From Candidatus Porisulfidus sp. TsSOB (GTDB lineage: Bacteria > Pseudomonadota > Gammaproteobacteria > Poriferisulfidales > Poriferisulfidaceae), in the NCBI GenBank assembly GCA_002631715.1, contig MRSX01000002.1:152478-216477 (forward strand): DNA of 64,000 bases, read 5' to 3'. Positions 2,156-64,000 of this stretch are shown piece by piece. How positions within the stretch are numbered: position 1 is the first letter of the stretch; each line of letters begins with the position of its first letter. The notes beneath the pieces are model-generated. The model saw only the letters and a list, made by a program, of their open reading frames with translations. It was not told where the DNA came from and did not search any database. Position numbers and translations under genes: made by a program.

Positions 2156-2208
2156 CTACCAATTTTAGAGCATGGGGGTACACTACGCCCCTCTTACCGG
2201 CCAATCCC

Positions 2209-4562: not shown

Positions 4563-4568
4563 GCGCGA

Positions 4569-4781: not shown

Positions 4782-4903
4782 TTTCTCCTCGGAATCTCCC
4801 GGGCTCGGTCTTTACACCACCAATTTTAGAACGGCACCCAACTCTTTCCTATGAGCCTCTATGCTAGAGTAAGAGATTGCCCTGATTGGCGGAGATTCCC
4901 CCC

Positions 4904-5320
4904 ATGTCCAGCGACGACGGATTGCGCAAGGCGGGCCTCAAGAGCACCGTTCCCCGGTTGAAAATCCTGGCTGTTCTGGAAAACAGCGACGTGCGGCACA
5001 TGTCGGCCGAAGACCTCTACCGCAGGCTGCTGGACGCCAACGAAGACATCGGGCTTGCGACCGTGTACCGGGTCTTGACCCAGTTCGAGCAGGCAGGCCT
5101 GGTGGTCCGGCACAACTTCGACGCGGGCCGGGCCGTCTACGAACTCAACGACGAATCACCGCACGAGCACCTGATCTGCACGGAGTGCAACGCGGTCATC
5201 GAATTCGAGGATCCCGAACTCGTCGAACATCTCCGGGAGATCATCCGGCAGAAACACTTCGACCTGCAGAGCCACTCCCTGTACCTGTACGGCGTCTGCA
5301 GCGATTGCCGGGATAAGTAG
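4904..5320 (+). CDS. fur: ferric uptake regulator Fur
   Basis: MSSDDGLRKAGLKSTVPRLKIL... aligns with Fur N-termini. HEH/CxxC metal sites are present (HEHLICTECN...CSDC). An alternative in-frame ATG lies at 4886. Confidence 0.9.
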   Translation: MSSDDGLRKAGLKSTVPRLKILAVLENSDVRHMSAEDLYRRLLDANEDIGLATVYRVLTQFEQAGLVVRHNFDAGRAVYELNDESPHEHLICTECNAVIEFEDPELVEHLREIIRQKHFDLQSHSLYLYGVCSDCRDK

Positions 5321-5354
5321 GCCCCGCACAGCGGCGAGACCTACTGTCATCGAT

Positions 5355-5372
5355 GCGGCCAACCGCGGCCGC
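5355..5372. terminator. GC-rich hairpin between convergent fur and TonB-receptor genes (possible bidirectional terminator)
   Basis: gcggcc-aaccgc-ggccgc: a 6-bp perfect stem with a 6-nt loop, and no U-tract. Confidence 0.3.
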
Positions 5373-5374
5373 GT

Positions 5375-7654: not shown

Positions 7655-7850
7655 GCAGATCACTCCACAATGTGTCATAAGAAATCCTCCTTGCGATTTC
7701 CCGGTCAATCAAAAGGCCGATCAAGGCCAAAGCCCCTGATCGGCCAGATCTAAACAGGCTGCCAAGGGGCTCCGCCCCCGGTAGCCGGCAGTAATCCTAT
7801 CAGAATTTTTCGAAAAACCCGGATTTGTCGCTATTTTCGGGGCTTCAAGA

Positions 7851-9581
7851 TTAGTGGCCGACCACCACCAACCACAGGCACTGGTACGGCGTCAGCGTCA
7901 GATCCAGATGGCGGTGATGGACCCGGATCCGATTTTGCCCGATCAGGTCATTCACCGCACGCGGCAGCCCCAGTGGCTCCGTATCCAGATTCACGCGTTG
8001 CGGCTGTGGCGTGATGTTGCAGAGCACCAGAATCTTCTGTCGTGAAGACTCCCGAACCAGGCCGAGAAACCCCGAGCCAAGAGCCAACGGAGTCATCGAC
8101 GCCTGCGGCGCAAACGCGGGCTGCCCGGCGCGCAAGCGAATCAGGCCAAGCAGAGCCTCCAATACTTCCCGCCTCGGGTGCCCTGGCTCGTTCAATTGCT
8201 GTTCAAGTGCTGCCCGATCCAATTGGCCGCGATTGACCGAGCGTGCGCGTCCGGTCGCGCGCGCCTTCTCCTCGTCGTTCGGTGAAGCCAACAAGCTGTG
8301 GATGTAGAACGCCGGGATCCCCGGAAGCGACAAAAGGATCACATGCGCGCACAGCATCCGGGCGATCTGTAAGTCATCCTCGCCGAAACGGGTGCCACGC
8401 AAGGCATCGAACAGCGTGATGTTGATCTCGTAGGGGTATTCGCGCCCATCGTCGCCGGTTCGGGTGCTGATTCGCCCACCGAAGCGGCGCATCGTTTGCA
8501 GCAAATCCTCCAGTTCCGCCGGGGTGACGATCCCCTCGACCGGGCGCACGCCGATGCCGTCGTGAGAAGCGATGAAATTCAGGAAAGTGCAACCCGGTGG
8601 TAGCTCCGGCCAATCGCGGAGCCACCGGTTCAAGTAAACGGAACTGCCGCGGTGAAGAGCCTGCAGCACCAGAGATGGCAACGCGAACTGGTAGATCAGG
8701 TCCGCCTCATCCCCTTCGCCGAAGTAGCTCAGGTTCTCGTCCTGCGGAACGTTGGTTTCGGTGACGATTCGACAGGCCGGCGCATGCGCTCTGAGAATGG
8801 CGTGGAGCAGGCGGATAATGCGGTGCGTCTGGGGGAGGTGGATGCAACTCGTCCCCGGCTCCTTCCACAGGTAGGCGACTGCGTCCAGCCGCAGCAGGCG
8901 TGCACCGGCCGCCACGTATTGCGCCATCACGTCGATGACCTCAAGCAGGACCTCCGGATTGTGGTAGTTGAAGTCCAGTTGGTCGTCGCTGAATGTCGTC
9001 CAAACCCCGCGACCTTGCGGGTCGTTCGGCAACGGGGTAATCAGCGGGGTCGCCCGTGGCCGGACAATCCCGGTTGTGTCCATTGCCGGATCCACGACAT
9101 GAAACCAGTGCTCCACGCTGGAATCGCCGGACCACAGGCATCGCGCCAGTGAGTGCTCCCGCGAGCAGTGGTTGAGCACCAGATCGGTCATCAAGTCGAA
9201 TTTTTCAGCGATTCGGGAAACATCCTCCCAATCCCCCAAGTCGGGACGTACTTCTCGGTAGGACGACACGGCAAAACCATCATCCGAAGTGAACGGGAAA
9301 TAGGGAAGCAGGTGCACCGCGCTGAATGCGTCCTGCAGGCGGGTTTCCAGGAAGTCGGCCAGAGTGCGCAACGGCGCTTTCCCAGGCTCGGTCAGGGTGT
9401 CGCCATACGTGATCAGCAGCGTGTCCCGCTCTGACCAGCCCTGATCCGGGCGGCAGGGCGCATATGCATACTGCTTGAAGCTCGCGGCAATCCGCTCCTG
9501 CAGCGCATCTGCATCCGCATCCGGGTACAGCACCCGGAGATGTTCGACAATGGCGTTCACGCGTGGCGCTCCAACGCCCAC
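7851..9581 (-). CDS. GH13 subfamily 18 glycoside phosphorylase (sucrose-phosphorylase family; possibly glucosylglycerate phosphorylase)
   Basis: LLITYGDTL, the GH13 nucleophile region GARLLRLDAVAYLWKE, and FIASHDGIGVRP. A roughly 55-aa N-terminal extension precedes the sucrose-phosphorylase core. The start is uncertain and overlaps the queG 3' end. Confidence 0.75.
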   Translation of the reverse strand: MGVGAPRVNAIVEHLRVLYPDADADALQERIAASFKQYAYAPCRPDQGWSERDTLLITYGDTLTEPGKAPLRTLADFLETRLQDAFSAVHLLPYFPFTSDDGFAVSSYREVRPDLGDWEDVSRIAEKFDLMTDLVLNHCSREHSLARCLWSGDSSVEHWFHVVDPAMDTTGIVRPRATPLITPLPNDPQGRGVWTTFSDDQLDFNYHNPEVLLEVIDVMAQYVAAGARLLRLDAVAYLWKEPGTSCIHLPQTHRIIRLLHAILRAHAPACRIVTETNVPQDENLSYFGEGDEADLIYQFALPSLVLQALHRGSSVYLNRWLRDWPELPPGCTFLNFIASHDGIGVRPVEGIVTPAELEDLLQTMRRFGGRISTRTGDDGREYPYEINITLFDALRGTRFGEDDLQIARMLCAHVILLSLPGIPAFYIHSLLASPNDEEKARATGRARSVNRGQLDRAALEQQLNEPGHPRREVLEALLGLIRLRAGQPAFAPQASMTPLALGSGFLGLVRESSRQKILVLCNITPQPQRVNLDTEPLGLPRAVNDLIGQNRIRVHHRHLDLTLTPYQCLWLVVVGH

Positions 9582-10609
9582 GCAACGTGTTCGCGCACCA
9601 GTTCGCTGGGATGCCCGGCGCGAGTCCGCAGCGCCGCGACTACGGCTTCATCGTGCGGCGCATTGCCAAGCGCCACGGCGACATTGCGCAGCCACTGGAC
9701 ATGCCCGATGCGGCGCATCGCCGTACCTTCGGTGTGACGCAGGTAGTCTGTTTCTTCCCAAGTCATCATCTCCACAAGCGACGACTTCTCCAGTGCGGCT
9801 CGCGGCTGGAAGTCCTCTACCGAAGCCAGCCGGGCGTAGCGGTTCCATGGGCAGACCAGTTGGCAGTCGTCGCAACCGTAGACCCGGTTGCCGATCAGTG
9901 GCCGAAGCGGCAACGGGATCGAACCCTTGAGCTCAATCGTCAGGTACGAGATGCAACGGCGCGCGTCCAGTTGATACGGCGCGACGATTGCCTGGGTCGG
10001 GCAGACATCGATACAGGCGCGACAATCCCCGCAGTGTTCTTCACGGGTCGGCGGATCGGGGGCCAACGGCAAGTCCGTATAGATCTCACCAAGGAAAAAC
10101 CAGGACCCGGCATCCTTGGCCAGCAGGTTGGTGTGTTTGCCGATCCAGCCCAGCCCGGCACGTTCGGCCAACGCTTTCTCGAGCACCGGTGCGCTGCCGG
10201 TGAACACGCGGTAGCCGAACGGGCCGGCCACCCCTTCGATACGCCGGACCAAGCGCCGCAGGCGGCCTCGCAGCACCTTGTGGTAGTCCCGGCCCAAGGC
10301 GTATCGGGACACGTAGCCACGGGTTGAATCCTCCAATGCCTGTTCCGCGTGATCCAGCCCGTGCGGGAGGTAATTGAGGCGGACCGAAATCACCCGCTGC
10401 GTTCCAGGCACCAACTCCCATGGGCGCGAGCGGCGCACCCCGTGGCGCTGCATGTAGCCCATCTCGCCGTGCCGGCCCTGTTTCAGCCAGTTCAGCAGGT
10501 GCGTCTCGTGCTCTTCCAGATCCAGGTCGGCGATGCCCACCTGATCGAAGCCCAGTTCCCGTCCCCATCGGTGGACGGCACGCGAGAGATCCGGCAGCGA
10601 ATCGGACAT
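9557..10609 (-). CDS. queG: tRNA epoxyqueuosine reductase
   Basis: Two 4Fe-4S ferredoxin motifs (CGDCRACIDVCP and CDDCQLVCPWN) and a QueG-type N-terminal region. Confidence 0.9.
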   Translation of the reverse strand: MSDSLPDLSRAVHRWGRELGFDQVGIADLDLEEHETHLLNWLKQGRHGEMGYMQRHGVRRSRPWELVPGTQRVISVRLNYLPHGLDHAEQALEDSTRGYVSRYALGRDYHKVLRGRLRRLVRRIEGVAGPFGYRVFTGSAPVLEKALAERAGLGWIGKHTNLLAKDAGSWFFLGEIYTDLPLAPDPPTREEHCGDCRACIDVCPTQAIVAPYQLDARRCISYLTIELKGSIPLPLRPLIGNRVYGCDDCQLVCPWNRYARLASVEDFQPRAALEKSSLVEMMTWEETDYLRHTEGTAMRRIGHVQWLRNVAVALGNAPHDEAVVAALRTRAGHPSELVREHVAWALERHA

Positions 10610-10652
10610 GTACAGGTAAGGACCGATGAAAACACGCTACTATACTGCGATT

Positions 10653-12434
10653 GTGTGTGGAATCGCGGGAGAAAGGCATTTCCGGGGACCGGCCGATCCC
10701 GCCCGCATCGCCCGCATGCTCCTCCCTCTAGCCCGCAGGGGACCCGATCACGAGGGCCAGTGGCACCAGGGCCCGGTCGCATTGGGACACCGCCGCCTGT
10801 CGGTCATCGATCTGAATCCTCGGGCGCATCAACCGCTGCTGGATCCCGATTCCGGTCAGGTTCTGGTCTTCAACGGTTGCATCTATAACTACCCGCAGTT
10901 GCGGACACAACTGCAAGAACGCGGTCACCGTTTCCGCACCACGGGGGACAGCGAGGTCATCCTGAAAGCCTATGCCGAATGGGGCGAAATTTGCGTCGAA
11001 CGCCTCCACGGCATGTTTGCCTTCGCCCTGTGGGATCCCCGCGCGGAGCGATTGTTCTTGGCTCGGGATCGGCTGGGCATCAAGCCACTTTATTACCACC
11101 AGGCTCCCGATGCCTTCCGTTTCGCTTCCAACGTGCAGGCCCTGCTCGCCACCAAAGACGTGGACCTCACGCTCGACGAAGTCGCCTTGCACCATCACCT
11201 GAGCCTGCACGCGGTTGTCCCAGCCCCCCACACCCTGCTGCGTTCCATCCGAAAACTTGCACCGGGCCATTACCTGACGGTCGACGCGGACGGTACGGTG
11301 AAAGAGGAAAGCTACTGGCAACTGGATGCGCGGAACCCGGATCCCGCTCGCAACACGGAAGAATGGGTGGAACAGGTGCACGTCGAACTTCGAGAGGCTG
11401 TGCGCAAGCGGATAGAAATCTCCGACATCCCGGTCGGCGTGCTGCTGTCCGGCGGCCTGGACTCCAGCCTTCTGGTTGCCCTGCTGGCCGAACACGGCTC
11501 CTCGCCTATCCGCACCTACAGCATCGGCTTTGAGGATGTGGGCGGAGAAGCCGGGCATGAATTCGAATACTCGGACGCGGTCGCCCGGCACTACGACACC
11601 GAACATCATCGCTACTTCATCCGCAACGACCAGTTGTTGGATCGCTTGGACGAGGCCATTGGCTGCATGAGCGAACCCATGGTGGCCCAGGATGCGGCAG
11701 CGTTCTTCCTGCTGGCGGAACAGGTCAAGACGGATATCTCGGTCGTACAGAGCGGGCAGGGCGCGGACGAAGTGTTTGCCGGCTACTCCTGGTACCCGAA
11801 GATGCACGAGGAACAGGCGGACGGGCTGAATGCCTTCTGCCGCCATTACCTGGACCGCACTCATGATGAGTTCGGCGGAGCACTGGCGCCAGAGTGGATT
11901 GGCGAGGATCATTCCCGGGCCCTGCTCGCAGAGCGGCTCGAATGCGGAGAGGATGTCGAGTTCCTGAATGCCGTGCTGCGCATGGACGCGACCATGCTGA
12001 TCACCGACGACCCGGTCAAGCGGGTCGACAACATGACCATGGCGTGGGGACTTGAGGCACGTGTGCCGTATCTCGACCACCAATTGGTTGAATGCGTCGC
12101 CGGGATGCCGGCGGAACTGAAGCTGCGCGACGGCGGCAAGTACCCGCTGCGCGCCCTGGCCCGGGCGCGGCTGCCGGCAGAAGTGATCGACCGGCCGAAA
12201 GGGTATTTCCCGGTTCCGGCCCTCAAGTACGTGCAGGGACCCTTCCTGGACTGGGCCCGGGAGATTTTGAGCCGGCCCGAATGCTTGAACCGCAGGTTGT
12301 TTCGGAGAGAATACCTTGATCGGTTGCTTCAGGATCCCCTGCGCTATCGAACCGCGCTGGACGGCAGCCTGCTATGGCACGCGGCAGCGCTGGAATGCTG
12401 GTTGCAGCAACACGTCGACGGAATCAGTCCCTGA
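10653..12434 (+). CDS. asnB: asparagine synthase (glutamine-hydrolysing), AsnB family
   Basis: GTG at 10653 makes the class II amidotransferase catalytic Cys the second residue ((M)CGIAG). The synthetase domain carries SGGLDSS PP-loop. Confidence 0.85.
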   Translation: MCGIAGERHFRGPADPARIARMLLPLARRGPDHEGQWHQGPVALGHRRLSVIDLNPRAHQPLLDPDSGQVLVFNGCIYNYPQLRTQLQERGHRFRTTGDSEVILKAYAEWGEICVERLHGMFAFALWDPRAERLFLARDRLGIKPLYYHQAPDAFRFASNVQALLATKDVDLTLDEVALHHHLSLHAVVPAPHTLLRSIRKLAPGHYLTVDADGTVKEESYWQLDARNPDPARNTEEWVEQVHVELREAVRKRIEISDIPVGVLLSGGLDSSLLVALLAEHGSSPIRTYSIGFEDVGGEAGHEFEYSDAVARHYDTEHHRYFIRNDQLLDRLDEAIGCMSEPMVAQDAAAFFLLAEQVKTDISVVQSGQGADEVFAGYSWYPKMHEEQADGLNAFCRHYLDRTHDEFGGALAPEWIGEDHSRALLAERLECGEDVEFLNAVLRMDATMLITDDPVKRVDNMTMAWGLEARVPYLDHQLVECVAGMPAELKLRDGGKYPLRALARARLPAEVIDRPKGYFPVPALKYVQGPFLDWAREILSRPECLNRRLFRREYLDRLLQDPLRYRTALDGSLLWHAAALECWLQQHVDGISP

Positions 12435-18666: not shown

Positions 18667-18740
18667 TGGAGCGGGTGAAGGGAATCGAACCCTCGTTATC
18701 AGCTTGGGAAGCTGAAGTTCTACCATTGAACTACACCCGC
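18667..18740 (-). tRNA. tRNA-Gly (anticodon CCC)
   Basis: Reverse complement reads GCGGGTGTAGTTCAATGGTAGAAC...TTCCCAA...GGTTCGATTCCC...CACCCGCTCCA. This gives a cloverleaf with a 7-bp acceptor stem, a T-loop and a CCC anticodon. Confidence 0.85.
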
Positions 18741-37853: not shown

Positions 37854-37929
37854 TGGCTCCCCGGGACGGGCTCGAACCGCCGACCTAGTGGTTAACAGCC
37901 ACCCGCTCTGCCAACTGAGCTACCGGGGA
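37854..37929 (-). tRNA. tRNA-Asn (anticodon GTT)
   Basis: Reverse complement reads TCCCCGGTAGCTCAGTTGGCAGAGCGGGTGGCTGTTAACCACTAGGTCGGCGGTTCGAGCCCGTCCCGGGGAGCCA, with cloverleaf and CCA end. Confidence 0.85.
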
Positions 37930-39880: not shown

Positions 39881-39957
39881 GGGCCTGTAGCTCAGTTGGT
39901 TAGAGCAGGGGACTCATAATCCTTTGGTCGCAGGTTCGAATCCTGCCGGGCCCACCA
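39881..39957 (+). tRNA. tRNA with CAT anticodon (tRNA-Ile2/lysidine type favoured over elongator tRNA-Met)
   Basis: GGGCCTGTAGCTCAGTTGGTTAGAGCAGGGGACTCATAATCC...CGGGCCCACCA. The C4-G69/C5-G68 acceptor pairs and the position downstream of rpoD mirror E. coli rpoD-ileX. Confidence 0.8.
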
Positions 39958-54296: not shown

Positions 54297-54481
54297 TGGT
54301 TTATGTATGCCTGTCAACCTGCCGTGATCGTTGAGCCAATGTGGCGGCATGCAGTTTCGTGGTTTTCATGCTGCCATGCGGCTTGAATCTGCTTGAGAAG
54401 TCTAGGGTGTTTCTGATCGTTGATATAAGCCACAATCAGAGTAGAATGAATAATCCCCTCCATTACAAAAGGAGTAAGGAT

Positions 54482-54853
54482 ATGTCACTGCCCAATATGA
54501 TGAAGGCGAGCATCGACGGCGCCGAACCGGATGTTCATGGGAAGATCTCCAAACAAGTTGTCACACTCGACGAGGTCACAGCTATCAAGGTGACTTTCAA
54601 CCCTGGAGCCAAATGGTCTGAGGATCTCAAGGAATACGCTGGAACGGAATCATGCCTGCTTCCGCATGTCGCATATGTGATCTCCGGCGCAATCGAAATC
54701 CAGATGGATGACGGTTCAAAAGAGACTTTTCGCAAAGGCGACATCATGATGCTGCCCCCGGGACATGACGCTTGGACCGTAGGTGACGAACCTTGCCAGT
54801 TCATCCAGATGTCGCAGGGCGACAACTACTACGCGGATCGCTGCTGCGCATAG
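54482..54853 (+). CDS. cupin-domain protein
   Basis: Strong SD AAAGGAG 8 nt upstream of the ATG at 54482. 123 aa with cupin-like beta motifs (GHDAWTVGDEPCQFIQM). Confidence 0.55.
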   Translation: MSLPNMMKASIDGAEPDVHGKISKQVVTLDEVTAIKVTFNPGAKWSEDLKEYAGTESCLLPHVAYVISGAIEIQMDDGSKETFRKGDIMMLPPGHDAWTVGDEPCQFIQMSQGDNYYADRCCA

Positions 54854-54913
54854 GCCGGCCTGAAGCGGGCTCGGGTCACAGTTGAAATTGGAAGCCATTC
54901 GGCTGCCAATCGT

Positions 54914-56128
54914 CTATGCTTGATTGTCCTCTTCCACGGCTATTTCCAAGCGTTGCAGGAAGTCTGGAATAGCTGAACGAACCCGACGCCAACTCGGAAC
55001 GTACGGGCTTTCCATCGGGTGCGCCAGAAAATCCTCCCCGGCCTTCAGCAAGTTGCTGGCAAATAGCTCCGCTGCCTGCTCTTCCGCATCCCGATCCAAG
55101 TTCAGCCCGTTGGTGACGGCATCGCTCTGGTAGTATTCGATCAGGTCCAGCGCTTCCCGAAGATAGGCAGCCTTGAGGCTGCGGAACACGCCTTCGGAGA
55201 ACACCTCGCCCTCGATCGCCATCTTCCTGAAGACGGCCTTGCAGATGTCTGCGCTCATCTTCGACAGCCCCGACTGCGCATCGGCCTCTCCCATCTGCTG
55301 GTGTTTGTGGTCGTACAGGTCCGCGATGTCGATCTGGCAGATGCGCCGGCTTGAGTACATACGCCGGATCTCGGCGAGCAGGCCGATCTCCAGGCCCCAG
55401 TCGTCCGGCAGGTACAAGTCCTTGAGCACGTGGGTACGCAACGAGCACTCCCCGGCCAGCGGATAGCGGAAACTGTCGAGAAACTCGACGAAATCGTGTG
55501 GCCCGAACACCTTGCTGAGGGCACGCAGCAGCGGTGCCACCAACAGTCGCGCCACCCGCCCCTTCAGTTCCTGCTCGGAAATGCGCGAATAGTAACCTTT
55601 GCAGAACGCGAAACTGAAACTCGGGTTCGCGACCGGATAGATCAACCGCGCCAGCAGGCGGCGATCGTACGTAATGATGTCGCAGTCGTGCAATGCCAGG
55701 GCTTTTGCACGGTCGGATGCCAGCACGTACCCGAAACAGAACCAGACGTTACGCCCCTTTCCTTGCTGGCTCGGCGCCAAACCCCGTGCCTCCAGTTCAT
55801 CCGCCAAGGCCCGCAGCCTGGGACCATCATTCCAAAGCACGTGGTGGGGCTGCGGCAGGCGGGAGAAGAAGTCTCGTGCCCGTTTGAACTGTTCCGCATC
55901 GGCCGCATCCAGACCGATTACGATCTCGTTCAGGTATTCGACCTGCGCCAGTTCTTCGATGATCCGGTCAAGCGCCGGCCCCTCTAGCTCCGAATACAGG
56001 GAAGGCAGCACCAGCCCCAGCGGACGGTCTTGAGAAAATCGAAGCAATTCCGCCTCGAATTCCTCGGTGGGGCGTCCCGCCAGATCGTGCAGCGTGACGA
56101 TCTGTCCATTCTGGAAAAAATCACTCAT
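54914..56128 (-). CDS. glucosyl-3-phosphoglycerate synthase-like glycosyltransferase (MpgS/GpgS family; sugar specificity unresolved)
   Basis: About 405 aa. It resembles the Osmo_MPGsynth-type synthases. The ATG at 56128 overlaps the HAD phosphatase stop. It is co-operonic with pgi and an MPGP-family phosphatase. Confidence 0.5.
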   Translation of the reverse strand: MSDFFQNGQIVTLHDLAGRPTEEFEAELLRFSQDRPLGLVLPSLYSELEGPALDRIIEELAQVEYLNEIVIGLDAADAEQFKRARDFFSRLPQPHHVLWNDGPRLRALADELEARGLAPSQQGKGRNVWFCFGYVLASDRAKALALHDCDIITYDRRLLARLIYPVANPSFSFAFCKGYYSRISEQELKGRVARLLVAPLLRALSKVFGPHDFVEFLDSFRYPLAGECSLRTHVLKDLYLPDDWGLEIGLLAEIRRMYSSRRICQIDIADLYDHKHQQMGEADAQSGLSKMSADICKAVFRKMAIEGEVFSEGVFRSLKAAYLREALDLIEYYQSDAVTNGLNLDRDAEEQAAELFASNLLKAGEDFLAHPMESPYVPSWRRVRSAIPDFLQRLEIAVEEDNQA

Positions 56129-56900
56129 GGCTGCCCTCCAGCAGCGTCTGAACCGCGCGCGACCAAGCCGTCGGTCCGGTCCCCTCCGGGACGCGCGCAC
56201 CAGGATATTGTATGTTGCGCCCGCCAGGGTTGTTGATAACCACCGCGATATCCGCTGCCGACATCATGCCCAGATCGTTCGGCCCGTTGCCAAGTGCCAC
56301 GCTGACTGCTTCCGGATGCCGCTGCCGATAACGCGGCACCAGATGCTCCAGTGCAACCCGTTTGTCGGTTTCCCCCATGACATGCACGAAGCGGTCTCCA
56401 CGCTTGAGGATCAGCCCATGCGGGCGCAGGCTTTCCGCAAATTCGTCGAGGCACCCCGGATCATCACGCCAGACCAGCGGCTCGCTAAAGCGTCTCTCTC
56501 GGGCCGCCGCCACCGAACCGGGCGGCAAGCCGCAGGCAGCCTCCACCTCTTCTTCACTCATGTCGGAAATCCCCTGGAAGCGGAACGAGGCAGACAGTCC
56601 GTCCAAGGCGGCCCGGATCGCCGGATGGGGGGCGCCAAATGGAATCAGCCCTTCCGCCTCGCCGTCGCCGAAAGTCCCGGGCGGCACGTATACCGCGCCC
56701 CCGTTTTCAATCGAAAACGGCGCATGGATCCCGAGTTCCTCCCCCAACTGAAGGGTCTCCTGTTCGGTCTTGCTGGTGTTGAAGATAATCGGCACACCGT
56801 GCCTGCGGGCGCACTCGATTCCGGGCAGTGCCTCCTCCCAGCGATACGTTTCGACGTCGAGCATCGTCCCATCGACGTCGCTGAACAGAAGATAGCGCAT
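56121..56900 (-). CDS. HAD-IIB phosphatase of the mannosyl/glucosyl-3-phosphoglycerate phosphatase (YedP/MpgP) family
   Basis: DVDGTMLD motif I, TSKT motif II. The C-terminal GNGPND with SAADIAVVINNP fits YedP-like proteins. Confidence 0.7.
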   Translation of the reverse strand: MRYLLFSDVDGTMLDVETYRWEEALPGIECARRHGVPIIFNTSKTEQETLQLGEELGIHAPFSIENGGAVYVPPGTFGDGEAEGLIPFGAPHPAIRAALDGLSASFRFQGISDMSEEEVEAACGLPPGSVAAARERRFSEPLVWRDDPGCLDEFAESLRPHGLILKRGDRFVHVMGETDKRVALEHLVPRYRQRHPEAVSVALGNGPNDLGMMSAADIAVVINNPGGRNIQYPGARVPEGTGPTAWSRAVQTLLEGSHE

Positions 56901-58444
56901 TACCGGTGCCGCAGTCGGTCGAGGAGAGCATCCAGGGTGTGCCCGGGAGCCGGCACCGACGAATCTTGCAATGCCTCCGCCAGAGAGCGTGACAGGCGCT
57001 TGCCGTATTCCACCCCGAACTGGTCGAAAGCGTTGATCCCCCAGAACACGGCCACCGAAAATGTTGCATGTTCGAACAGCGCCAATAGCGCCCCGACCCG
57101 TCGCGGGCTCAGATCTTCCATCAGGAACAGCGTGCTTGGCCGGTCTCCGGGGTGCACGTAGTGCCCAGGCGCCACCCCATCGGCTGGCTCCACTTCTTCA
57201 GAAGTCCGCCCTGAAGCCAACAGGTCCAATTGGGACAAGCACTGGGCCAGCAACGCTCGCTCGCGTTCATTTTCCAGGTCACCCCGCGCGATGATCGCGT
57301 CCACCGGCACGACCTGCGACCCTTGGTGCAACAGTTGGAAGAACGCGTGGGCGCCGTCGTTGGCGGAACCGCCCCACACGACCGGCGCCGCAACCTCCTG
57401 CAACTCACCATGTGTATCCGCACGTTTGCCCAGGCTTTCCATCTGCAACTGCTGCAGGAACCTTGGCAGCGTACGCAAGCCTTGATTGTACGGAAGAACC
57501 GCCCGCGTCGCCGCGCCCAGGAACGTGTGGTTCCAGAGCATCAGCAGCGCCAACAGCAAGGGGGCGTTGGATTCCGCCTCCGCTTCCCTGAAATGTTCAT
57601 CCATCGCATGGGCGCCTGCAAGCAATTCTTCAAATGCACCCCAGCCAGCATGCAACACGACCGGCAAGCCGACCGTCGACCAGACCGAATAGCGACCGCC
57701 AACCCCTTCCCAGAATGGGAAGATCCGCTGCGCGTCGATGCCGCTCTCCTGCGCGCGGTCGGTGGCAGCCGTGGTGGCCGCAAAATGCTCCATCACCTCC
57801 CCGGATCCCACTCCTTGTTCCACGAGCCATTGTTTGACCGCCGAAAAATTCCGCTGGGTCTCTTCGGTAGTAAATGTCTTGGAAGCGACGATGAAAAAGG
57901 TCTGGTTCGCATCGCAGCCATGCAACGCGGCATTCAGCTCCTCAGGGTCCAGCGTGGATACGAAGCGGACATCCGGTGCGCCGGATGCGCGGGGAAACGT
58001 CTCGCACAGCATGCGCGGACCCAAGTCCGAACCACCGATCCCGAGGTTGATGACCGTCTGCCAGCGTGTAGCGCAAGTCTCCGCAAATTCACGCATCCGC
58101 TGGTGCTGCCGATGCACTTCCGACAGAATATCGACTCCTTCCACGACCAGGCCTTCCGGGCGCGGGTCGCGCAGTGCCGGGTGCAATGCCGGACGATTCT
58201 CCGTTTCGTTCACCGGCATGCCGGCAAACAGGTCGGAACGGGCCGGCTCCACCTGCTCCGCCACGCGCAACAGGTCCGCCCAGGCCGCAGCATCCAACCG
58301 CTGGCGCGAAGCATCCACGTAGATACCCTCGATATTGCGGCACAGGAAGGAACGTTCCCGGTCTTCCGCAAACAGGGTTCGCAGCGGAATTTTCCGCAGG
58401 CGTTCCGCGTGATGGAAAAGGGATTCCGGGTAGGGTTCAGGCAT
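56900..58444 (-). CDS. pgi: glucose-6-phosphate isomerase
   Basis: PGI motifs GGRYSVWSTVG and the second PGI signature; 514 aa. Its stop overlaps the downstream HAD gene start. Confidence 0.85.
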   Translation of the reverse strand: MPEPYPESLFHHAERLRKIPLRTLFAEDRERSFLCRNIEGIYVDASRQRLDAAAWADLLRVAEQVEPARSDLFAGMPVNETENRPALHPALRDPRPEGLVVEGVDILSEVHRQHQRMREFAETCATRWQTVINLGIGGSDLGPRMLCETFPRASGAPDVRFVSTLDPEELNAALHGCDANQTFFIVASKTFTTEETQRNFSAVKQWLVEQGVGSGEVMEHFAATTAATDRAQESGIDAQRIFPFWEGVGGRYSVWSTVGLPVVLHAGWGAFEELLAGAHAMDEHFREAEAESNAPLLLALLMLWNHTFLGAATRAVLPYNQGLRTLPRFLQQLQMESLGKRADTHGELQEVAAPVVWGGSANDGAHAFFQLLHQGSQVVPVDAIIARGDLENERERALLAQCLSQLDLLASGRTSEEVEPADGVAPGHYVHPGDRPSTLFLMEDLSPRRVGALLALFEHATFSVAVFWGINAFDQFGVEYGKRLSRSLAEALQDSSVPAPGHTLDALLDRLRHR

Positions 58445-58511
58445 GCTGAAAAGTCTGTGTTTGGGGTGCGCCTAGTATAATGGGCGGCTCAAACGCCACC
58501 GCCTTTTCTTT

Positions 58512-61307
58512 ATGCCTAGCGCGGCCAAACATACGCCGTCGATAGGCGATGCCATTGACCGCAAGTTACGACAGCGGGTCAAACTGCTGGGTCGCCTGCT
58601 CGGTCTCGTGCTCCAGGAGCACGCCCCGCCCCAAGTGTTCCAGGTCGTGGAGCGGCTGCGCCGGGGCTACATCCGTCTGCAGCGCGAAGAGGACGTGCGA
58701 CGGCGCATCCGCTTGGTGCGCTTGATCGACCGACTGGACCAAGATCTCACCAGCCAGGTCATCCGGGCGTTCTCCACCTACTTCAGCCTGGTCAACGTCG
58801 CCGAAGAGGCGGCGCTCCAAGATCAGCGCCGTCGGTATCTGCAAGCCGGTACCGCATTGTGGACAGGTTCATTCGACGCGACCTTGCGCGCACTCAAGGA
58901 ACAGAGCTTCAGCGCCGCCAAAGCGGAAAAGCTGTTGCTTCAGACGAATTACATGCCGGTCTTCACCGCCCATCCGACCGAGGCGAAGCGCCGCATCATG
59001 CAGGAAGCGTTGCGGCGGATTTTCATCCTGCTGCAATCCTCGGACGACCCAGCCTTGAGCCAAGTGGAACGCGACGAGGCCCGCGAGCGCCTGTTGGCGG
59101 AAATCCAGTTGCTGTGGAAGACCGACGAGGTCCGTCCAGGCAAGCCGACCGTGCAGACCGAAGTCAAGAACGGCTTGCATTATTTCGAGAAATCCCTGTT
59201 CGAGGCGATCCCGATCCTGTACCGCAACCTGCAGCGCGCGTGGCGGCGGACCTATCCGGATTCGCCCCGTACGCTTCCGAGCTTCATCCAGTTCGGCTCC
59301 TGGATCGGCGGCGACCGTGACGGCAACCCCCACGTCACTGCGCGCGTCACCCGGCAAGCCTGCCGGATGCAGGCGCGCACCATCCTCGGCGAATACATCC
59401 GGCGCGTCCGCAAACTGGAAAGCATCCTCAGCCACTCCTCGCACTTGATCGACCTGCCCGACCGCATGCGCACCAGCCTGGAAGCCGACCGCAAGCTGTT
59501 GGACCGGGTGCGCAGCCGAAGCATTTCACTGTTCGAGACCGAGCCGTACCGCTGCAAGCTGGAGGTCATCCTGTGCCGGCTGCAGCACCGGCTCGATCAT
59601 CTGGAGGGTCGATCCTGGCACAGTTCGGACAGCTATCAGGACGAGACCCAGTTCCTCGATGACCTGCGACTGATTTACGACTCGCTGGTCGAGCAGGGCG
59701 ATGGCCGCATCGCAGACGGAGAATTGACCGATCTGATCCGGTTGGTGGAGACATTCGGCTTCTACCTCGCGAGACTCGATCTCCGCCAGGAATCTCCTCG
59801 CCACACGGAGGCAGTCGACGAAATCCTGCAGGCCATGGATGGGACCGATTACGCCAATCTGAACGAAGCCAAGCGCATCCAAGTCCTGCAAAAGCACATC
59901 AAGAAGATGAACGGGCCGGTTTCTTTGGACCGCAGGAAACTGTCCGCCGCCACGCGCGAGACCTTGGCCGTGTTCGACCTCGTACGGGAAGTGCCGGAAC
60001 GAACCAGCCCGAAAATCTTCGGCCAATACGTCATCTCCATGACCCACGCTGCCAGCCATGTCCTGGAAGTGCTGTTCCTGGGAGGGTTGGCCGGGTTGGC
60101 CGGAGGCCGGGGACAGCATCACTTCTGCCTATTGCAGATTTGCCCGTTGTTCGAGACGATCGAGGACCTGCGCAGGGCGCCAAGCATCCTCAACCGGCTG
60201 TTTCAGGACCCCGTCTACCGCCCGTTACTCGATGCCTCCGGCGGCGTACAGGACATCATGCTGGGATATTCCGACTCCTGCAAGGACGGCGGCATCCTGG
60301 CCTCGGCATGGAACCTGTACCAGGCACAAAAGCAGATTCACGAGATCTCCAAGCGCCGGGGAGTACGGTTCCGGCTTTTCCACGGCCGCGGCGGAACCGT
60401 TGGGCGGGGCGGGGGACCGACCCACGAAGCCATCACGGCGCAGCCGTCCGGCACGGTGCGGGGCGCCATCAAGTTGACCGAACAGGGCGAGGTGCTGTCG
60501 TACAAGTACTCCAACCTGGAGACCGCCGTGTACGAACTGACCATGGGCGCGACCGGCCTGGTCCTGGCCTCCCGCCACCTGATATTCCGCAAACTAGCTC
60601 ACGAATACGCCGATGACCTCAGGATCATGGAGAAACTGGCCGAAGACGGTGAGCAAGCTTACCGGGAATTGATCACGGCACCGGGATTCCTGGACTACTT
60701 CTACGAGGTCACCCCGGTGCAGGAAATCGGCAATATCAACATCGGTTCCCGGCCTTCGCACCGCCGCGCGGTCGACCGGTCGATGGATTCCATCCGTGCC
60801 ATCCCCTGGGTGTTCGGCTGGTCCCTCTCGCGGCATACTTTGCCCGCCTGGTACGGCATCGGCACCGCGCTCGAATCCTATCTGAAGGCGCACCCGAAGA
60901 CCGGGCTTAAACAGATTCGCCGCATGTACAAGCGTTGGCCATTCTTCCAAACCCTGATGCAGAACATCCAGATGGCTCTCACCAAAGCCGACATGCCGAC
61001 CGCCCAGCAGTACATGCAGTTGAGTCGGCATCCGGACGACGCCAAGCGGATCTACCGGCAGATCGAGCGGGAATACCGGCTCACCCGAAAACTCGTGTTG
61101 CGGGCAACCCGTTGCAAGGAGCTTCTGGAAACACAGGAAGTGCTGCGCCGGTCACTGAGCCGTCGGAAACCCTACCTGGATCCCCTCAACGCGATCCAGC
61201 TCAGCCTGCTGCGCCGTACACGCGAAGCCTCCGACCCCGGCCCTTACCAGGATACGGTGGCACGATCGATCAGCGCGATCGCGGCAGGGATGCGGAATAC
61301 CGGCTGA
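58512..61307 (+). CDS. ppc: phosphoenolpyruvate carboxylase
   Basis: 931 aa with PEPC motifs (VFTAHPTE, GYSDSCKDGG, FHGRGGTVGRGGGP) and the C-terminal ...MRNTG. Confidence 0.95.
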   Translation: MPSAAKHTPSIGDAIDRKLRQRVKLLGRLLGLVLQEHAPPQVFQVVERLRRGYIRLQREEDVRRRIRLVRLIDRLDQDLTSQVIRAFSTYFSLVNVAEEAALQDQRRRYLQAGTALWTGSFDATLRALKEQSFSAAKAEKLLLQTNYMPVFTAHPTEAKRRIMQEALRRIFILLQSSDDPALSQVERDEARERLLAEIQLLWKTDEVRPGKPTVQTEVKNGLHYFEKSLFEAIPILYRNLQRAWRRTYPDSPRTLPSFIQFGSWIGGDRDGNPHVTARVTRQACRMQARTILGEYIRRVRKLESILSHSSHLIDLPDRMRTSLEADRKLLDRVRSRSISLFETEPYRCKLEVILCRLQHRLDHLEGRSWHSSDSYQDETQFLDDLRLIYDSLVEQGDGRIADGELTDLIRLVETFGFYLARLDLRQESPRHTEAVDEILQAMDGTDYANLNEAKRIQVLQKHIKKMNGPVSLDRRKLSAATRETLAVFDLVREVPERTSPKIFGQYVISMTHAASHVLEVLFLGGLAGLAGGRGQHHFCLLQICPLFETIEDLRRAPSILNRLFQDPVYRPLLDASGGVQDIMLGYSDSCKDGGILASAWNLYQAQKQIHEISKRRGVRFRLFHGRGGTVGRGGGPTHEAITAQPSGTVRGAIKLTEQGEVLSYKYSNLETAVYELTMGATGLVLASRHLIFRKLAHEYADDLRIMEKLAEDGEQAYRELITAPGFLDYFYEVTPVQEIGNINIGSRPSHRRAVDRSMDSIRAIPWVFGWSLSRHTLPAWYGIGTALESYLKAHPKTGLKQIRRMYKRWPFFQTLMQNIQMALTKADMPTAQQYMQLSRHPDDAKRIYRQIEREYRLTRKLVLRATRCKELLETQEVLRRSLSRRKPYLDPLNAIQLSLLRRTREASDPGPYQDTVARSISAIAAGMRNTG

Positions 61308-61308
61308 T

Positions 61309-61689
61309 TCAGGCCGCCTGGACCGGAATCTTGTGGGTGATGCGTTCGATGCGGTTGCCCGCGCCTAAGTAAACGAGGACGGGCTTGAAGTCCGCCACTT
61401 CCTCCGGCTCCAGTTGCGCGTAGGCGGCAATGATGACCTGATCCCCCGGCGATGCCTTGTGCGCCGCCGCACCATTCACCGAAATGATCCGGCTGCCGTG
61501 GCGGGCCTGGATGGCGTAGGTCGTCAGCCGCTCCCCGTTGGTAATGTTGTACAGGTCGATCTGCTCGTACTCGCTGATGCCGGCCGCTTCCAGCAACTCG
61601 CCATCAATCGCGCACGAACCATCGTAGTCCGGCTCGACATGAGTCACTGTTGCCTGATGCAGGCGGGCACGGAGGAAAGTCAGTTTCAT
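61309..61689 (-). CDS. panD: aspartate 1-decarboxylase
   Basis: The Gly-Ser self-processing site (DYDGSCAID) is present; 126 aa. Confidence 0.9.
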
Positions 61690-61753
61690 ATCCGAATTTT
61701 AGCAAATGGACTTTTCGCGGCAAAACGCCCCTGCGAGACAACACACGGGCAGC

Positions 61754-64000
61754 TTATTGCCCAGATGTCTTTATCCAGTGATGACGGCGCTGGAACGGAT
61801 AGCCCGGCAGTGAGATTCGGCGCCGTGCCTCTCCCGCGAACAGCCCCTGGAAGGAAATCGGCAGTCCCGTCTCGTACACCTTCGCCACGGTCCCCACGAA
61901 TTTCCGGTAAATGTCCTCCACCGGTTCGTCACCGGACGGTTCGTGCAAGCTCGAGATCAGCGCTGGCTCCCCCGCATCTCCTGCTGGTTCCGGCCAAGCA
62001 GAAGCAAGCATGGGGCCAAATGCCTCGCGCGGGCCGATTTCCACCAGCCCATCGATCCCAAAACCCGACAATGCCTCAGCACATTTCTGGAGTTCCGCCG
62101 GCTTGCTCGCTTGCTCGTGCCAGTATGTTGCGTCGAGTACCTCGTCGGGCCCGACCATCCGACCCATTGTGCTGCTGATCAGGGTGATCGACGGCGGCAC
62201 GATCGCGATATCCGAGAAAGCCGTTTCCAATTCATCCGCACCACGCGCTGCCGCAAACAGCAAGCCATCCTTCAGACTAAATACTCCCGCCGCCTGCGCT
62301 GCCGCAATTTCTCCGAGATCATGGCCAATCACCGCGCTCGGGCGAACCCCCATGCTCAGCCACCATGCCGTAAGCGCGCATTCCAGCGCATAGATGGCCG
62401 GTTGCGCCCATGCCGGATCGTCCAGGCTTTCTTTTGAATCGGCTCGACCGAACATCACATCCAGCAGCGAAACTTCCCGTTCTTCCTGAAGCCAGGCGTC
62501 GCATTGATCCAGCACCGCCCGTATTACCGGCTCACTCCGATACAGCGCTTCTCCCATCCCGACCCACTGGCTGTCCTGCCCGGTGTACACGAACGCGGCT
62601 TTCGCTGCCACTCGCGGTTCCGATCCCTCGCCCGCTTCTACTACTGTCTCCAGTCCGTCCCTCAAGGATCCGGCATCATTGAATACCACGCCTGCGCGGT
62701 GAGTGAAATGACTTCGCCCTATCCCGGCCGTCCACGCCATATCGGCAAGCAACCGGTCTGGAGTCTCGCCTTCTTCGGAAAACTCCTCTGCGTGATCATC
62801 AAGCCACGACCGGTATTTCCCCGCCAACTCTCCAAGCGCTGCATGCGACTTTCCGGAGAGAGGCAGGATTCTTGCCGCACGCGGGTTGAATTCTTCTGCT
62901 GCCGGCAGCGAATCCGCGATGGATTCCGGCAGCGAGATGTCGACAGTCTGTTCGACCCCCTCGGGGGCGGACATCCCGTCGGACTTGGATGACTCGCTTT
63001 GCGGCGCGTCGTAACCTTCCACGATGACATGGGCATTCGTCCCCGACAACCCGAAAGCGCTCACGCCTGCCCGCGGCGGCCGGCCGGGGTCGAGTGGCCA
63101 GTCGATTGTTTCCGATGTCACCCGCACGGGCAACTGGTCCCAGTCCACCTGCGGGCTCGGGTTCTGGAAATGCAATTGCCCCGGGATCTTCCCTCGCTGC
63201 ATCGCCAACACAACTTTGATCAACGCCGAAACTCCCGCCGCCCACTCCAGATGCCCGATGCTCGGCTTGACCGAGCCGATCAGCAGCGGGCGGTCCGCCT
63301 CGCGCCCTTCGCCGTACACCGCCGCCGCCGCGCGCACCTCGACCGGGTCACCTAATTCCGAACCTGTCCCATGAGCCTCCAGGTAATCCACCTCCGACGG
63401 CGGAATCCCGGTCTGGGCCAGTGCCTCTCCAAGCACCTGCTCCTGTGCGGTTCCGCTGGGTGCCGATATGCCGGCACTCGCCCCGTTCTGGTTGACCGCC
63501 GAACCCCGGATCACACCCCAGATTCGGTCACCGTCCGCTTCCGCCTTGCTCAACCGCTTGAGGACCACGATCCCGCAGCCTTCGCCTCGCACAAAACCAT
63601 CTGCCGCAGCATCGAAAACACCGCATCGCCCGCTTGCCGACAGCATCCCGAAGTCCGCCATGAACTTTGTGACTGCAGGAGACAGGACCACGTTGGCACC
63701 TCCGGCCAGAGCCAGATCCACCTCGCCCCGCCGCAGACTTGCGATCGCCTGATGCACGGCAACCAGCGATGAGGCACAGGTCATGTCCAGCGGGATTGCC
63801 GGTCCCATGAAACCCAGTGCGTAGGAAATTCGCCCGGCCGCTACGCTTCCAGCAGTACCGATATAGTTGTCCTCCTCGCCAAGGGCTGCGACCAGGTCTC
63901 GGTATTCGCTGCCGCCCAACCCCACATACACCCCGGTTTGGCTGCCTTTCAGCAGGTCGGGATCCATTCCGGCATCCTCAAGCGCCTGCCAACTCGTTTC
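61754..64000 (-). CDS. type I polyketide-synthase-like KS-AT didomain protein (N-terminal part beyond the window); AT motif is GHDLG
   Basis: Frame open to nt 64000. KS catalytic triad present (DMTCASSLVA, EAHGTGSELGDP, SIGHLEWAAG). The AT-like domain reads VIGHDLGE, with Asp where the Ser nucleophile normally sits. The protein stops after the post-AT linker LPGYPFQRRHHWI. Confidence 0.75.
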   Translation of the reverse strand, partial: ETSWQALEDAGMDPDLLKGSQTGVYVGLGGSEYRDLVAALGEEDNYIGTAGSVAAGRISYALGFMGPAIPLDMTCASSLVAVHQAIASLRRGEVDLALAGGANVVLSPAVTKFMADFGMLSASGRCGVFDAAADGFVRGEGCGIVVLKRLSKAEADGDRIWGVIRGSAVNQNGASAGISAPSGTAQEQVLGEALAQTGIPPSEVDYLEAHGTGSELGDPVEVRAAAAVYGEGREADRPLLIGSVKPSIGHLEWAAGVSALIKVVLAMQRGKIPGQLHFQNPSPQVDWDQLPVRVTSETIDWPLDPGRPPRAGVSAFGLSGTNAHVIVEGYDAPQSESSKSDGMSAPEGVEQTVDISLPESIADSLPAAEEFNPRAARILPLSGKSHAALGELAGKYRSWLDDHAEEFSEEGETPDRLLADMAWTAGIGRSHFTHRAGVVFNDAGSLRDGLETVVEAGEGSEPRVAAKAAFVYTGQDSQWVGMGEALYRSEPVIRAVLDQCDAWLQEEREVSLLDVMFGRADSKESLDDPAWAQPAIYALECALTAWWLSMGVRPSAVIGHDLGEIAAAQAAGVFSLKDGLLFAAARGADELETAFSDIAIVPPSITLISSTMGRMVGPDEVLDATYWHEQASKPAELQKCAEALSGFGIDGLVEIGPREAFGPMLASAWPEPAGDAGEPALISSLHEPSGDEPVEDIYRKFVGTVAKVYETGLPISFQGLFAGEARRRISLPGYPFQRRHHWIKTSGQ

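Follow-up and report, generated by a model that had tools for sequence, protein, structure and literature searches.

A probable SupA-type polyketide synthase gene end in a gammaproteobacterial sponge symbiont, with an intact ketosynthase triad and an acyltransferase that is very probably non-catalytic

The gene at the window edge and its neighbour panD

The window (i.e. the whole 64-kb stretch of DNA analysed) ends within a minus-strand open reading frame (ORF) of a type I polyketide synthase (PKS), which has no start codon inside the window and whose first residue falls about 95 positions into the ketosynthase (KS) profile (Table 1). Judging from ortholog length, the 5' part of the gene, about 2,690 codons, lies beyond the window edge. 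The original prediction was a KS-AT didomain protein. The KS, the acyltransferase (AT) motif and the stop right after the LPGYPFQRRHHWI linker are all found in the translation, the protein ending in LPGYPFQRRHHWIKTSGQ, but the didomain layout arises only from where the window ends, the ORF running on beyond it.

The two closest relatives share 94% (L006) and 93% (L007) of the 748 residues, no relative in the genome scan exceeding 94%, and in each the protein is encoded by one ORF, 3,439 and 3,445 aa long respectively. An exact 41-mer search among metagenome contigs gave no match. Their synteny is that of the window, and their DNA is 90-93% identical through panD and PEPC. In L006 the Pfam domains are, in order, KS, AT, PS-DH, Methyltransf_12, ADH_zinc_N, KR and PP-binding, and the domain order of this one polypeptide is KS-AT(GHSVGE)-DH-MT-ER-KR-ACP(GMDSL)-KS-AT°. 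The orthologs contain a MAS/FAS-like single module; we call its first two domains KS1 and AT1, and the terminal pair KS2 and AT°. Most of the 85 relative loci carry a single ORF of 3,400-3,550 aa; separate KS-AT° genes of 750-860 aa exist in other genomes, directly after a KS-AT-DH-MT-ER-KR-ACP gene. The full architecture is read from relatives 86-94% identical, the window itself holding only the KS2-AT° end. By orthology, the window ORF appears to be the C-terminal KS2-AT° end of a KS-AT-DH-MT-ER-KR-ACP-KS-AT° polypeptide. No KR, DH or ACP follows AT°, as originally noted, but the stand-alone condensing enzyme then considered is contradicted by the fused orthologs, where module 1 lies upstream in the same polypeptide.

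Table 1. Coordinates of the PKS gene end, its domains and motifs, and the panD region within the window.
Feature	Position	Strand	Evidence or remark
supA-like type I PKS gene, 3' end (748 codons + stop)	61754..64000	-	translation; orthologs L006, L007
KS2, fragment residues 1-330	63011..64000	-	Pfam KS_N 6e-50, KS_C 1e-39
Cys75 of KS2	63776-63778	-	in DMTCASS
His210 of KS2	63371-63373	-	in EAHGTGS
His250 of KS2	63251-63253	-	in SIGHLE
KS-to-AT linker domain, residues 331-465	62606..63010	-	Pfam KAsynt_C_assoc, CurL-like_PKS_C, RhiE-like_linker
AT° N-terminal part of large subdomain, residues 466-587	62240..62605	-	Acyl_transf_1 match, alignment
GQDSQ motif of AT°	62567-62581	-	
GHDLGE motif of AT°	62309-62326	-	
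Asp561 codon (GAT)	62318-62320	-	
Arg586 of AT°	62243-62245	-	carboxylate-binding, equivalent of FabD Arg117
Deletion junction Ala588/Asp589	62234..62239	-	MAFFT alignment, internal BLASTP
AT° C-terminal part of large subdomain, residues 588-700	61901..62239	-	aligns with C-terminal third of canonical ATs
Post-AT linker, residues 701-748, protein end	61757..61900	-	translation
LPGYPFQRRHHWI within post-AT linker	61772-61810	-	
Stop codon of PKS gene	61754-61756	-	
Terminator-like hairpin overlapping PKS stop codon	61746..61763	-	consensus scan; weak evidence
Sigma-70-like promoter match upstream of panD	61696..61723	-	consensus scan, 9/12 + extended TG; weak evidence
panD (aspartate 1-decarboxylase)	61309..61689	-	Pfam Asp_decarbox 4e-43, TIGR00223 1e-41

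As originally noted, panD lies 64 nt downstream of the PKS gene on the same strand. The link to beta-alanine/pantothenate metabolism suggested by this proximity is rejected: panD is adjacent at only 4 of the 86 related loci (the window, L006, L007 and L024), all from a single gammaproteobacterial lineage, and the terminator-like and promoter-like sites of Table 1 intervene. L008 (86% identical) carries hydrolase, PPTase and ACP genes downstream of the PKS instead. panD merely adjoins the PKS system and does not belong to it; its adjacency is lineage-specific and coincidental.

Ketosynthase, linkers and truncated acyltransferase

The translation bears out the complete Cys-His-His triad first reported for the KS. 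Its residues (Cys75, His210 and His250) are kept in 85/85, 85/85 and 84/85 relatives respectively, and the dN/dS of KS2 is 0.07-0.11. KS2 possesses the Cys-His-His triad required of an elongating ketosynthase. An intact triad is necessary but not sufficient for condensation, as the KS of CalA3 (PMC10006239), a calcimycin module that has no ACP and releases the chain, keeps it too. No in-line ACP follows KS2; most loci have conserved a discrete ACP, its Ser invariant, which may pair with KS2. In the post-AT linker the columns Y734, P735, F736 and W742 are invariant (alignment A1).

Like the KS_N and KS_C matches of Table 1, the Acyl_transf_1 match of AT° (6e-33) is far beyond chance; it spans only profile positions 2-117 of 319. 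Aligned by MAFFT with canonical PKS ATs and E. coli FabD, AT° keeps about two-thirds of the AT fold and lacks about 88 residues at the junction of Ala588 and Asp589, i.e. the ferredoxin-like small subdomain together with the catalytic His of the HAFH motif. A BLASTP comparison internal to L006 gives the same picture: KS2-AT° is 58% identical to its own KS1-AT1, and the alignment skips residues 706-793 of AT1. From these alignments, AT° appears to be an internal paralogue of AT1. The N-terminal part of AT° is modelled with a pLDDT of about 85-92 and has a dN/dS of 0.06-0.24; that of the C-terminal part is 0.09-0.41. The deletion of the small subdomain and catalytic His had been overlooked in the original prediction.

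The motif had been read as VIGHDLGE, with Asp in place of the Ser nucleophile, and the translation agrees: the Ser of GHSxG is absent from the AT° of the window, the codon being GAT. A sequencing error at this position is rejected, as L006, an independent assembly 94% identical, has the same GAT codon, and no single-base change converts GAT into a Ser codon. Compared with active transacylases (FabD and PKS ATs, PF00698), AT° is without Ser nucleophile, catalytic His and small subdomain, and only the Arg is retained.

The position of the former Ser is variable in the 85 relatives (Gly 72, Asp 9, Ala 2, Ser 1, Gln 1), while the shortening by about 88 residues occurs in 85/85; the His of the motif is kept in 23/85 and the Arg in 54/85. 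The nearest relatives of the window (86-94% identical) read Asp, Ala and Gly: the one at 94% has Asp, that at 93% Ala and that at 86% Gly. Asp is not conserved, the point that the original prediction had asked to be checked. A neighbour-joining tree with Fitch parsimony gives Gly as the ancestral state and about seven separate origins of Asp, and GGY to GAY is the commonest single transition away from Gly. Asp561 is probably a tolerated single-transition variant of this kind, due to neutral drift at a dead active site.

Partner genes, occurrence and likeness to Sup

Searches by tblastn within 10 kb of the PKS gene found a discrete ACP at about 75 of the 85 loci, an α/β-hydrolase at about 68, an NCS2-type permease at about 50 and an Sfp-type PPTase at about 45, identities that are supported by Pfam and NCBIfam. 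The Ser of the discrete ACP is kept in 66/66 aligned sequences and that of the hydrolase in 68/68. The nucleophile elbow of this conserved hydrolase is atypical. The ACP and hydrolase genes of L006 and L007 are found upstream of the PKS gene and are divergent. None of the four partner genes has a match anywhere in the 64-kb window, and they were not found near about 10 sup-like loci, L002 and L005 included. AT1, itself part of the PKS polypeptide, is the cluster's only AT, and no free-standing AT was found. According to the record titles the loci are nearly all from metagenome-assembled genomes of sponge symbionts, in more than 10 phyla; among the names in the titles of the 80 genome loci are SB06xx, RHO, COS and IRC bins as well as Ca. 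Porisulfidus and Ca. Palauibacter.

This combination recalls the Sup ('sponge symbiont ubiquitous') cluster, supA-E (Fieseler et al. 2007; Hochmuth et al. 2010). Sup is a small mono-modular sponge-specific PKS, the proposed maker of mid-chain-branched fatty acids, with SUP-like clusters in several phyla. SupE is a permease (PMC3908369). We identify the window gene with Sup because the reducing C-methylating module, the accessory gene set and the occurrence in sponge symbionts of several phyla match. The first of these, one fully reducing module with a C-methyltransferase, is present in the ortholog L006 and lies outside the window; the discrete ACP, PPTase, alpha/beta-hydrolase and permease are found near the PKS across relatives, none of them inside the window; and the hosts are marine-sponge symbionts of several bacterial phyla. 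The likeness is drawn from published descriptions of Sup. With these points together, the gene is very probably the tail of a SupA-type PKS of a gammaproteobacterial sponge symbiont related to Ca. Porisulfidus, bearing a non-catalytic AT°. The PKS family of sponge symbionts has been known since 2007 and the window gene is an ordinary additional member; taken alone, its unusual motif is of little import.

Possible role of the terminal unit and comparison with known systems

In the family ancestor, AT° would have lost the small subdomain and the catalytic His by the deletion of about 88 residues, and the Ser nucleophile afterwards. What was left would have been kept as a folded scaffold holding the KS-linker-AT-post-AT-linker architecture of KS2, and possibly as a docking surface too; a structural scaffold is the most likely role of AT°. 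In the route that we propose, module 1 would carry out a single extension of a fatty-acyl starter, followed by C-methylation and full reduction, and KS2, with its intact triad, would then take the chain from the in-line ACP and condense it with a malonyl group on the discrete ACP, loaded in trans by AT1 or FabD. The alpha/beta-hydrolase would free the product, or the chain would pass to type II FAS; a methyl-branched fatty acid would result. For this route as a whole, from the module 1 product through KS2 and the discrete ACP to release or FAS, we see a little better than an even chance. The data show the anatomy, the loss of the catalytic apparatus of the AT, the purifying selection on what is left of it and the conserved partner genes; the direction of chain flow, the loading in trans and the product are inferred. 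In the literature searched, no experimental product of any Sup PKS was found.

That AT° serves more particularly as a non-catalytic docking platform, bringing the discrete ACP and trans malonyl loading by AT1 to KS2, is conceivable but rather doubtful. If it were so, SupA would be a natural hybrid with one AT serving two ACPs; in its last step a type I megasynthase would give up a methyl-branched chain to a free ACP and type II FAS. In the wider family the hydrolase and the discrete ACP make up a conserved terminal device together with the truncated AT° and an invariant KS2, and AT° offers a natural case of how much of an AT is removable with the KS-AT architecture intact, which is relevant to PKS engineering.

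A different function for the same unit would be that of an ACP-less release or transfer module like CalA3. KS2 would then perform no condensation, the chain on its Cys being off-loaded to water or a nucleophile (lipid head group, amine or other carrier), and AT° would be a scaffold only. CalA3 is likewise terminal and without ACP, its KS releases the chain by amidation or hydrolysis with a Cys-His-His triad, and its AT is inactivated (Ser to Gly, His to Leu and Arg to Leu); in our family, too, the former Ser position mostly holds Gly; moreover L002 and L005 have no discrete ACP nearby. However, the discrete ACP with its invariant Ser, the PPTase and the Ser hydrolase are co-conserved at most loci, and release by the KS alone would need none of them. 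Furthermore the KS-AT°-DH°-KR° layout and full-length AT of CalA3 are absent here, the polypeptide ending after the post-AT linker with no remnants of DH or KR. We consider release of this type fairly unlikely.

The remaining explanations are far less probable. In one, the AT would be a non-canonical loading or hydrolytic enzyme in which Asp561 acts as nucleophile or general base instead of Ser. Some alpha/beta-hydrolases (haloalkane dehalogenases, epoxide hydrolases) do use an Asp nucleophile, Asp is the second commonest residue at this position with repeated origins, and the window retains Arg586. But the deletion has removed the catalytic His and the small subdomain, which forms half of the substrate cleft, the closest relatives have Asp, Ala and Gly, Gly is ancestral, and the motif His and Arg vary in the family: a functional Asp is very improbable and was rejected. 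Of the two options originally offered, a non-canonical or an inactivated AT, the second stands. Inactivation does not amount to decay. The free drift of the catalytic residues could point to a functionless remnant, be it AT° or the whole KS2-AT° tail, but AT° is under purifying selection (dN/dS 0.06-0.41, similar to KS2), which rules out pseudogene-like decay; the deletion boundary and C-terminus are the same in 85 loci of more than 10 phyla, the KS2 triad is essentially invariant, and the fold is modelled confidently, the model matching the KS-AT didomains of CurL, Lsd14 and DEBS (Foldseek). There is very little room for such a remnant. A stand-alone KS-AT didomain of a PUFA-synthase, olefin or hybrid pathway tied to pantothenate through panD, as first proposed, would suit what the window displays, i.e. 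only KS-AT with panD close by, and stand-alone KS-AT° genes are known. It is contradicted by the fused orthologs of the same synteny, by the position of the separate genes directly behind a complete module, by the rare and interrupted adjacency of panD, and by the PfaA model (TIGR02813), whose score of 219 bits falls far short of the cut-off, 1010. Beside the orthologs, whose module is of the MAS/FAS type, neither pfa neighbours (tandem ACPs, KS-CLF, FabA-type DH) nor ole neighbours (OleABCD) were found. The PUFA/ole assignment was rejected and is the least credible of all.

Among known systems, Sup has in common with the orthologs the single fully reducing module with C-methyltransferase, the small accessory set (discrete ACP, PPTase, hydrolase and permease) and the confinement to sponge symbionts of many phyla. 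SupA, too, reportedly ends in an additional KS and a defective, truncated AT. The present case differs by its gammaproteobacterial host, by the gene order of its lineage (ACP and hydrolase upstream and divergent, panD and PEPC downstream) and by Asp at the former Ser position where Gly is usual.

CalA3 is also a terminal PKS unit with no in-line ACP, an intact KS triad and an AT devoid of catalytic residues in a structural role. Its AT is nevertheless full-size, with the small subdomain, and is accompanied by a dead DH and KR; CalA3 has no ACP as partner, and the bond that it makes is C-N, to 3-hydroxyanthranilate. In the present case AT° has an 88-residue deletion and is the last domain, and the discrete ACP and the hydrolase are conserved with it.

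The best sequence and fold matches are canonical cis-AT KS-AT didomains: CurL (4mz0; sequence match 3.8e-152, Foldseek E 5e-58 and TM about 0.7), DEBS module 5 (2hg4) and Lsd14 (7s6b). KS, linker domain, AT core and post-AT linker succeed one another in them as they do here, but their ATs, which possess GHSxG, the small subdomain and the HAFH His, lie ahead of processing domains and an ACP. In trans-AT PKSs a KS is also followed by a non-catalytic AT vestige, the AT-docking remnant, and acyl transfer comes from another AT. There, however, the AT core is entirely gone and a free-standing AT gene is present, whereas here about two-thirds of the AT fold persists and AT1 is in cis; a trans-AT assignment was rejected on the latter ground and for want of any free-standing AT.

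Frame, active-site residues and deletion in the acyltransferase

The frame 61754..64000 (-) is free of stops from the window edge to LPGYPFQRRHHWIKTSGQ, where it closes as originally noted. It contains the KS-AT linker and matches the Pfam profiles KS_N (6e-50), KS_C (1e-39) and Acyl_transf_1 (6e-33). The Cys-His-His triad of the ketosynthase and the Asp replacing the acyltransferase Ser were both read in the translation, and with the Pfam matches they establish that the original sequence observation was real. Two points had been missed: the frame has no start inside the window, since its KS part is matched only from profile position 95 onward, and the Acyl_transf_1 match covers only positions 2-117 of a 319-position profile.

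Features of the window and of the related locus L006
Feature	Position	Strand	Remark
KS motifs DMTCASS, EAHGTGS, SIGHLE	Cys75, His210, His250	-	translation
AT motif VIGHDLGE	Asp561, codon GAT 62318-62320	-	translation
AT° deletion junction AAARGA/DELE	nt ~62234-62239	-	alignment
panD	61309-61689	-	64 nt downstream of PKS gene
PEP carboxylase gene	58512-61307	+	converges on panD
tRNA-Gly-CCC	18667-18740
tRNA-Asn-GTT	37854-37929
tRNA-Met-CAT	39881-39957
Cluster alpha/beta-hydrolase	L006 374-1273	-	homologs in 68 loci

The fragment was aligned against FabD of E. coli and against canonical PKS modules among the retrieved homologs (P0058, P0070, P0084 and P0113, all GHSLGE). Relative to these references, about 85-95 residues are lacking right after the conserved Arg-Gly, both in the window protein and in close homologs of it. 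The absent block corresponds to the ferredoxin-like small subdomain and the HAFH-type catalytic His, and the deletion is common to all 85 related loci. Lacking the nucleophile as well as the His that pairs with it and one half of the substrate cleft, this acyltransferase (AT°) cannot work as any known kind of transacylase or hydrolase. A non-canonical loading or hydrolytic AT is thereby discarded; an inactivated AT, the other proposal, is right, given the replaced Ser and the deleted His and small subdomain, seen both in the alignment and in the Pfam coverage. In L006, KS2-AT° is 58% identical to KS1-AT1, the first ketosynthase and intact first acyltransferase of the same polypeptide, in an alignment that skips AT1 residues 706-793; AT° and AT1 are thus paralogues within one protein, and AT° has undergone a clean deletion.

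Where the Ser used to be, the 85 relatives carry Gly (72), Asp (9), Ala (2), Ser (1) or Gln (1); the His before this position is retained in only 23 of them, and the conserved Arg of the domain in 54. Fitch parsimony on a neighbour-joining tree places Gly at the root, with 11 changes and about seven origins of Asp, whose codons are all GAY, i.e. one transition from GGY. The Asp is not conserved in a clade: the window's own clade reads D (window, L006), A (L007) and G (L008). A second Gly-to-Asp change lies in the oxyanion-loop motif (window 62567-62581), which is GQDSQ in the window and L007, GQGSQ in L006 and GQGGQ in L008. Judged from these alignments, the variation at the Ser position and in GQGSQ is what an old active site under relaxed constraint would show, rather than a newly gained catalytic residue; GHDLG reflects neutral drift where catalysis has been lost.

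AT° is nevertheless no functionless relic. Its dN/dS is low when the window is compared with L006, L007 and L008 (0.06-0.24 in the N-terminal part, 0.09-0.41 in the C-terminal part; 0.07-0.11 for KS2). AlphaFold2, run on an alignment of 35 sequences, models AT° at a pLDDT of about 85-92, and the model can be laid over the KS-AT didomains of CurL, Lsd14 and DEBS (Foldseek E about 1e-55, TM about 0.7). In the same alignment Y734, P735, F736 and W742 of the post-AT linker are invariant, and the KS2 Cys, His and His are kept in 85, 85 and 84 of the 85 loci. On these grounds AT° would most simply be a scaffold keeping the KS-linker-AT-post-AT-linker architecture around a KS2 predicted to be active.

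The complete synthase and its Sup partners

When one genome of each GTDB species was scanned, three close relatives emerged, namely L006 (uncultured Chromatiales MAG, 94% identical), L007 (Gammaproteobacteria COS4_bin_16, 93%) and L008 (86%), and a further 77 loci at 53-63% identity. The DNA of L006 and L007 is 90-93% identical to the window, extending through panD, the PEP carboxylase gene and beyond. The L006 ortholog is a single ORF of 3,439 aa in which Pfam places KS, AT (GHSVGE), DH, C-methyltransferase, ER, KR, ACP (GMDSL), a second KS and AT°; judging from this ortholog, the window holds no more than the final fifth of a large single-module-plus PKS. This order is incompatible with the stand-alone KS-AT protein and the PUFA/olefin-type subunit that had been envisaged. 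Upstream of the L006 gene, and divergent from it, lie genes for a 75-113-aa ACP and an Abhydrolase_6 protein.

The usual form in the 85 loci is one ORF of 3,400-3,550 aa ending YPFQRRxxW. Elsewhere KS-AT° stands alone (750-860 aa) or as KR-ACP-KS-AT° (about 1,150-1,260 aa), always after a KS-AT-DH-MT-ER-KR(-ACP) gene. The L008 synthase is apparently split into 1851-8324 and 8297-12253 (2,157 and 1,318 aa, 28-nt overlap), and among the homologous proteins P0001-P0120 the apparent split points differ by genome: KS-AT / DH...ACP / KS-AT° in L004, ...ER / KR-ACP-KS-AT° in L003. These splits may be frameshifts, assembly errors or real.

Neighbour-gene probes covering 10 kb around each of the 85 loci detected a discrete ACP in about 75, an alpha/beta-hydrolase in about 68, an NCS2-type permease in about 50 and a Sfp/HetI-type PPTase in about 45. 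The Ser of the discrete ACP (G-V/I-S/P-S-x-D/E) is invariant, as is that of the hydrolase, whose elbow is atypical (G-[VI]-[FY]-H-S-x-[SA]-x instead of G-x-S-x-G) and which has no NCBIfam match near any cut-off. In L002, L005 and about eight other sup-like loci the same probes found discrete ACP, PPTase, hydrolase and permease absent within 10 kb; L002 has 2-oxoacid dehydrogenase E1alpha, E1beta and E2 and lipoate ligase genes downstream and a P450 upstream.

By their records almost all loci come from marine-sponge MAGs (Aplysina SB06xx, Rhopaloeides RHO, COS and IRC bins, Ca. Porisulfidus, Ca. Palauibacter), spread over Chloroflexota, Latescibacterota, Gemmatimonadota, Acidobacteriota, Nitrospinota, Alpha- and Gammaproteobacteria, Binatia and others. 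In the Sup family, first described in 2007, SupA reportedly carries an extra C-terminal KS with a defective AT, and SupB-D are reportedly an ACP, a PPTase and a hydrolase. The sup genes are small mono-modular PKSs dominating sponge metagenomes, with mid-chain methyl-branched fatty acids as proposed product; SUP-like clusters are known from several phyla, and SupE is a permease (PMC3908369). Judging by its match to the published descriptions of sup, the gene adds a gammaproteobacterial member to this known family. What remains of interest is the chemistry of the conserved terminal set, KS2, AT°, ACP and hydrolase.

The panD side of the gene

panD does follow the PKS stop on the same strand, as originally noted. 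This adjacency is confined to the window, L006, L007 and L024 (Ca. Porisulfidus), all of one gammaproteobacterial lineage, while L008 has hydrolase, PPTase and ACP genes downstream instead. The stop codon of the PKS gene lies within a terminator-like hairpin, and upstream of panD there is a promoter-like site. The suggested link to beta-alanine/pantothenate metabolism is therefore abandoned.

From panD onward L024 and the window share 85% DNA identity (window 54435-61706, L024 13895-21170) and the panD protein 95%; the SupA C-terminus of L024 (10001-12262 in the comparison) is only 63% identical to that of the window. Its AT° motif is GHSLGE, with a Ser codon AGC that is a single step away from GGC; between supA and panD, genes for a hydrolase and an ACP are inserted. 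These comparisons suggest that the sup cluster has been exchanged or rearranged while its place in the chromosome stayed fixed. Also on this side, a 428-aa ORF (54914-56200 (-)), flanked by the phosphoglucose isomerase gene and by an ABC-transporter operon, has no Pfam match at E<=1e-5. Across the whole window no Rfam family beyond the three tRNAs reaches its gathering score.

Elongation or release by KS2-AT°

The protein starts with KS and so has no loading module; KS1 would take a fatty-acyl starter. AT1 would load malonyl, and through MT, KR, DH and ER the in-line ACP would come to carry a saturated chain with a 2-methyl branch. KS2 would then take this chain and condense it with malonyl on the discrete ACP, loaded in trans by AT1 or FabD, and the product would be freed by the hydrolase or passed by the free ACP to type II FAS. 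We prefer this four-step elongation, with a confidence barely above even; which way the chain flows, the loading in trans and the nature of the product are our inferences.

KS2-AT° might instead perform chain release like CalA3, the ACP-less module of calcimycin biosynthesis, in which a KS with intact triad next to a dead AT off-loads the chain by amidation or hydrolysis (PMC10006239). We consider such a release rather unlikely and favour elongation, because ACP, PPTase and hydrolase are co-conserved with KS2-AT°. The triad alone does not separate elongation from release, an intact KS triad beside a dead AT being common to CalA3 and KS2-AT°.
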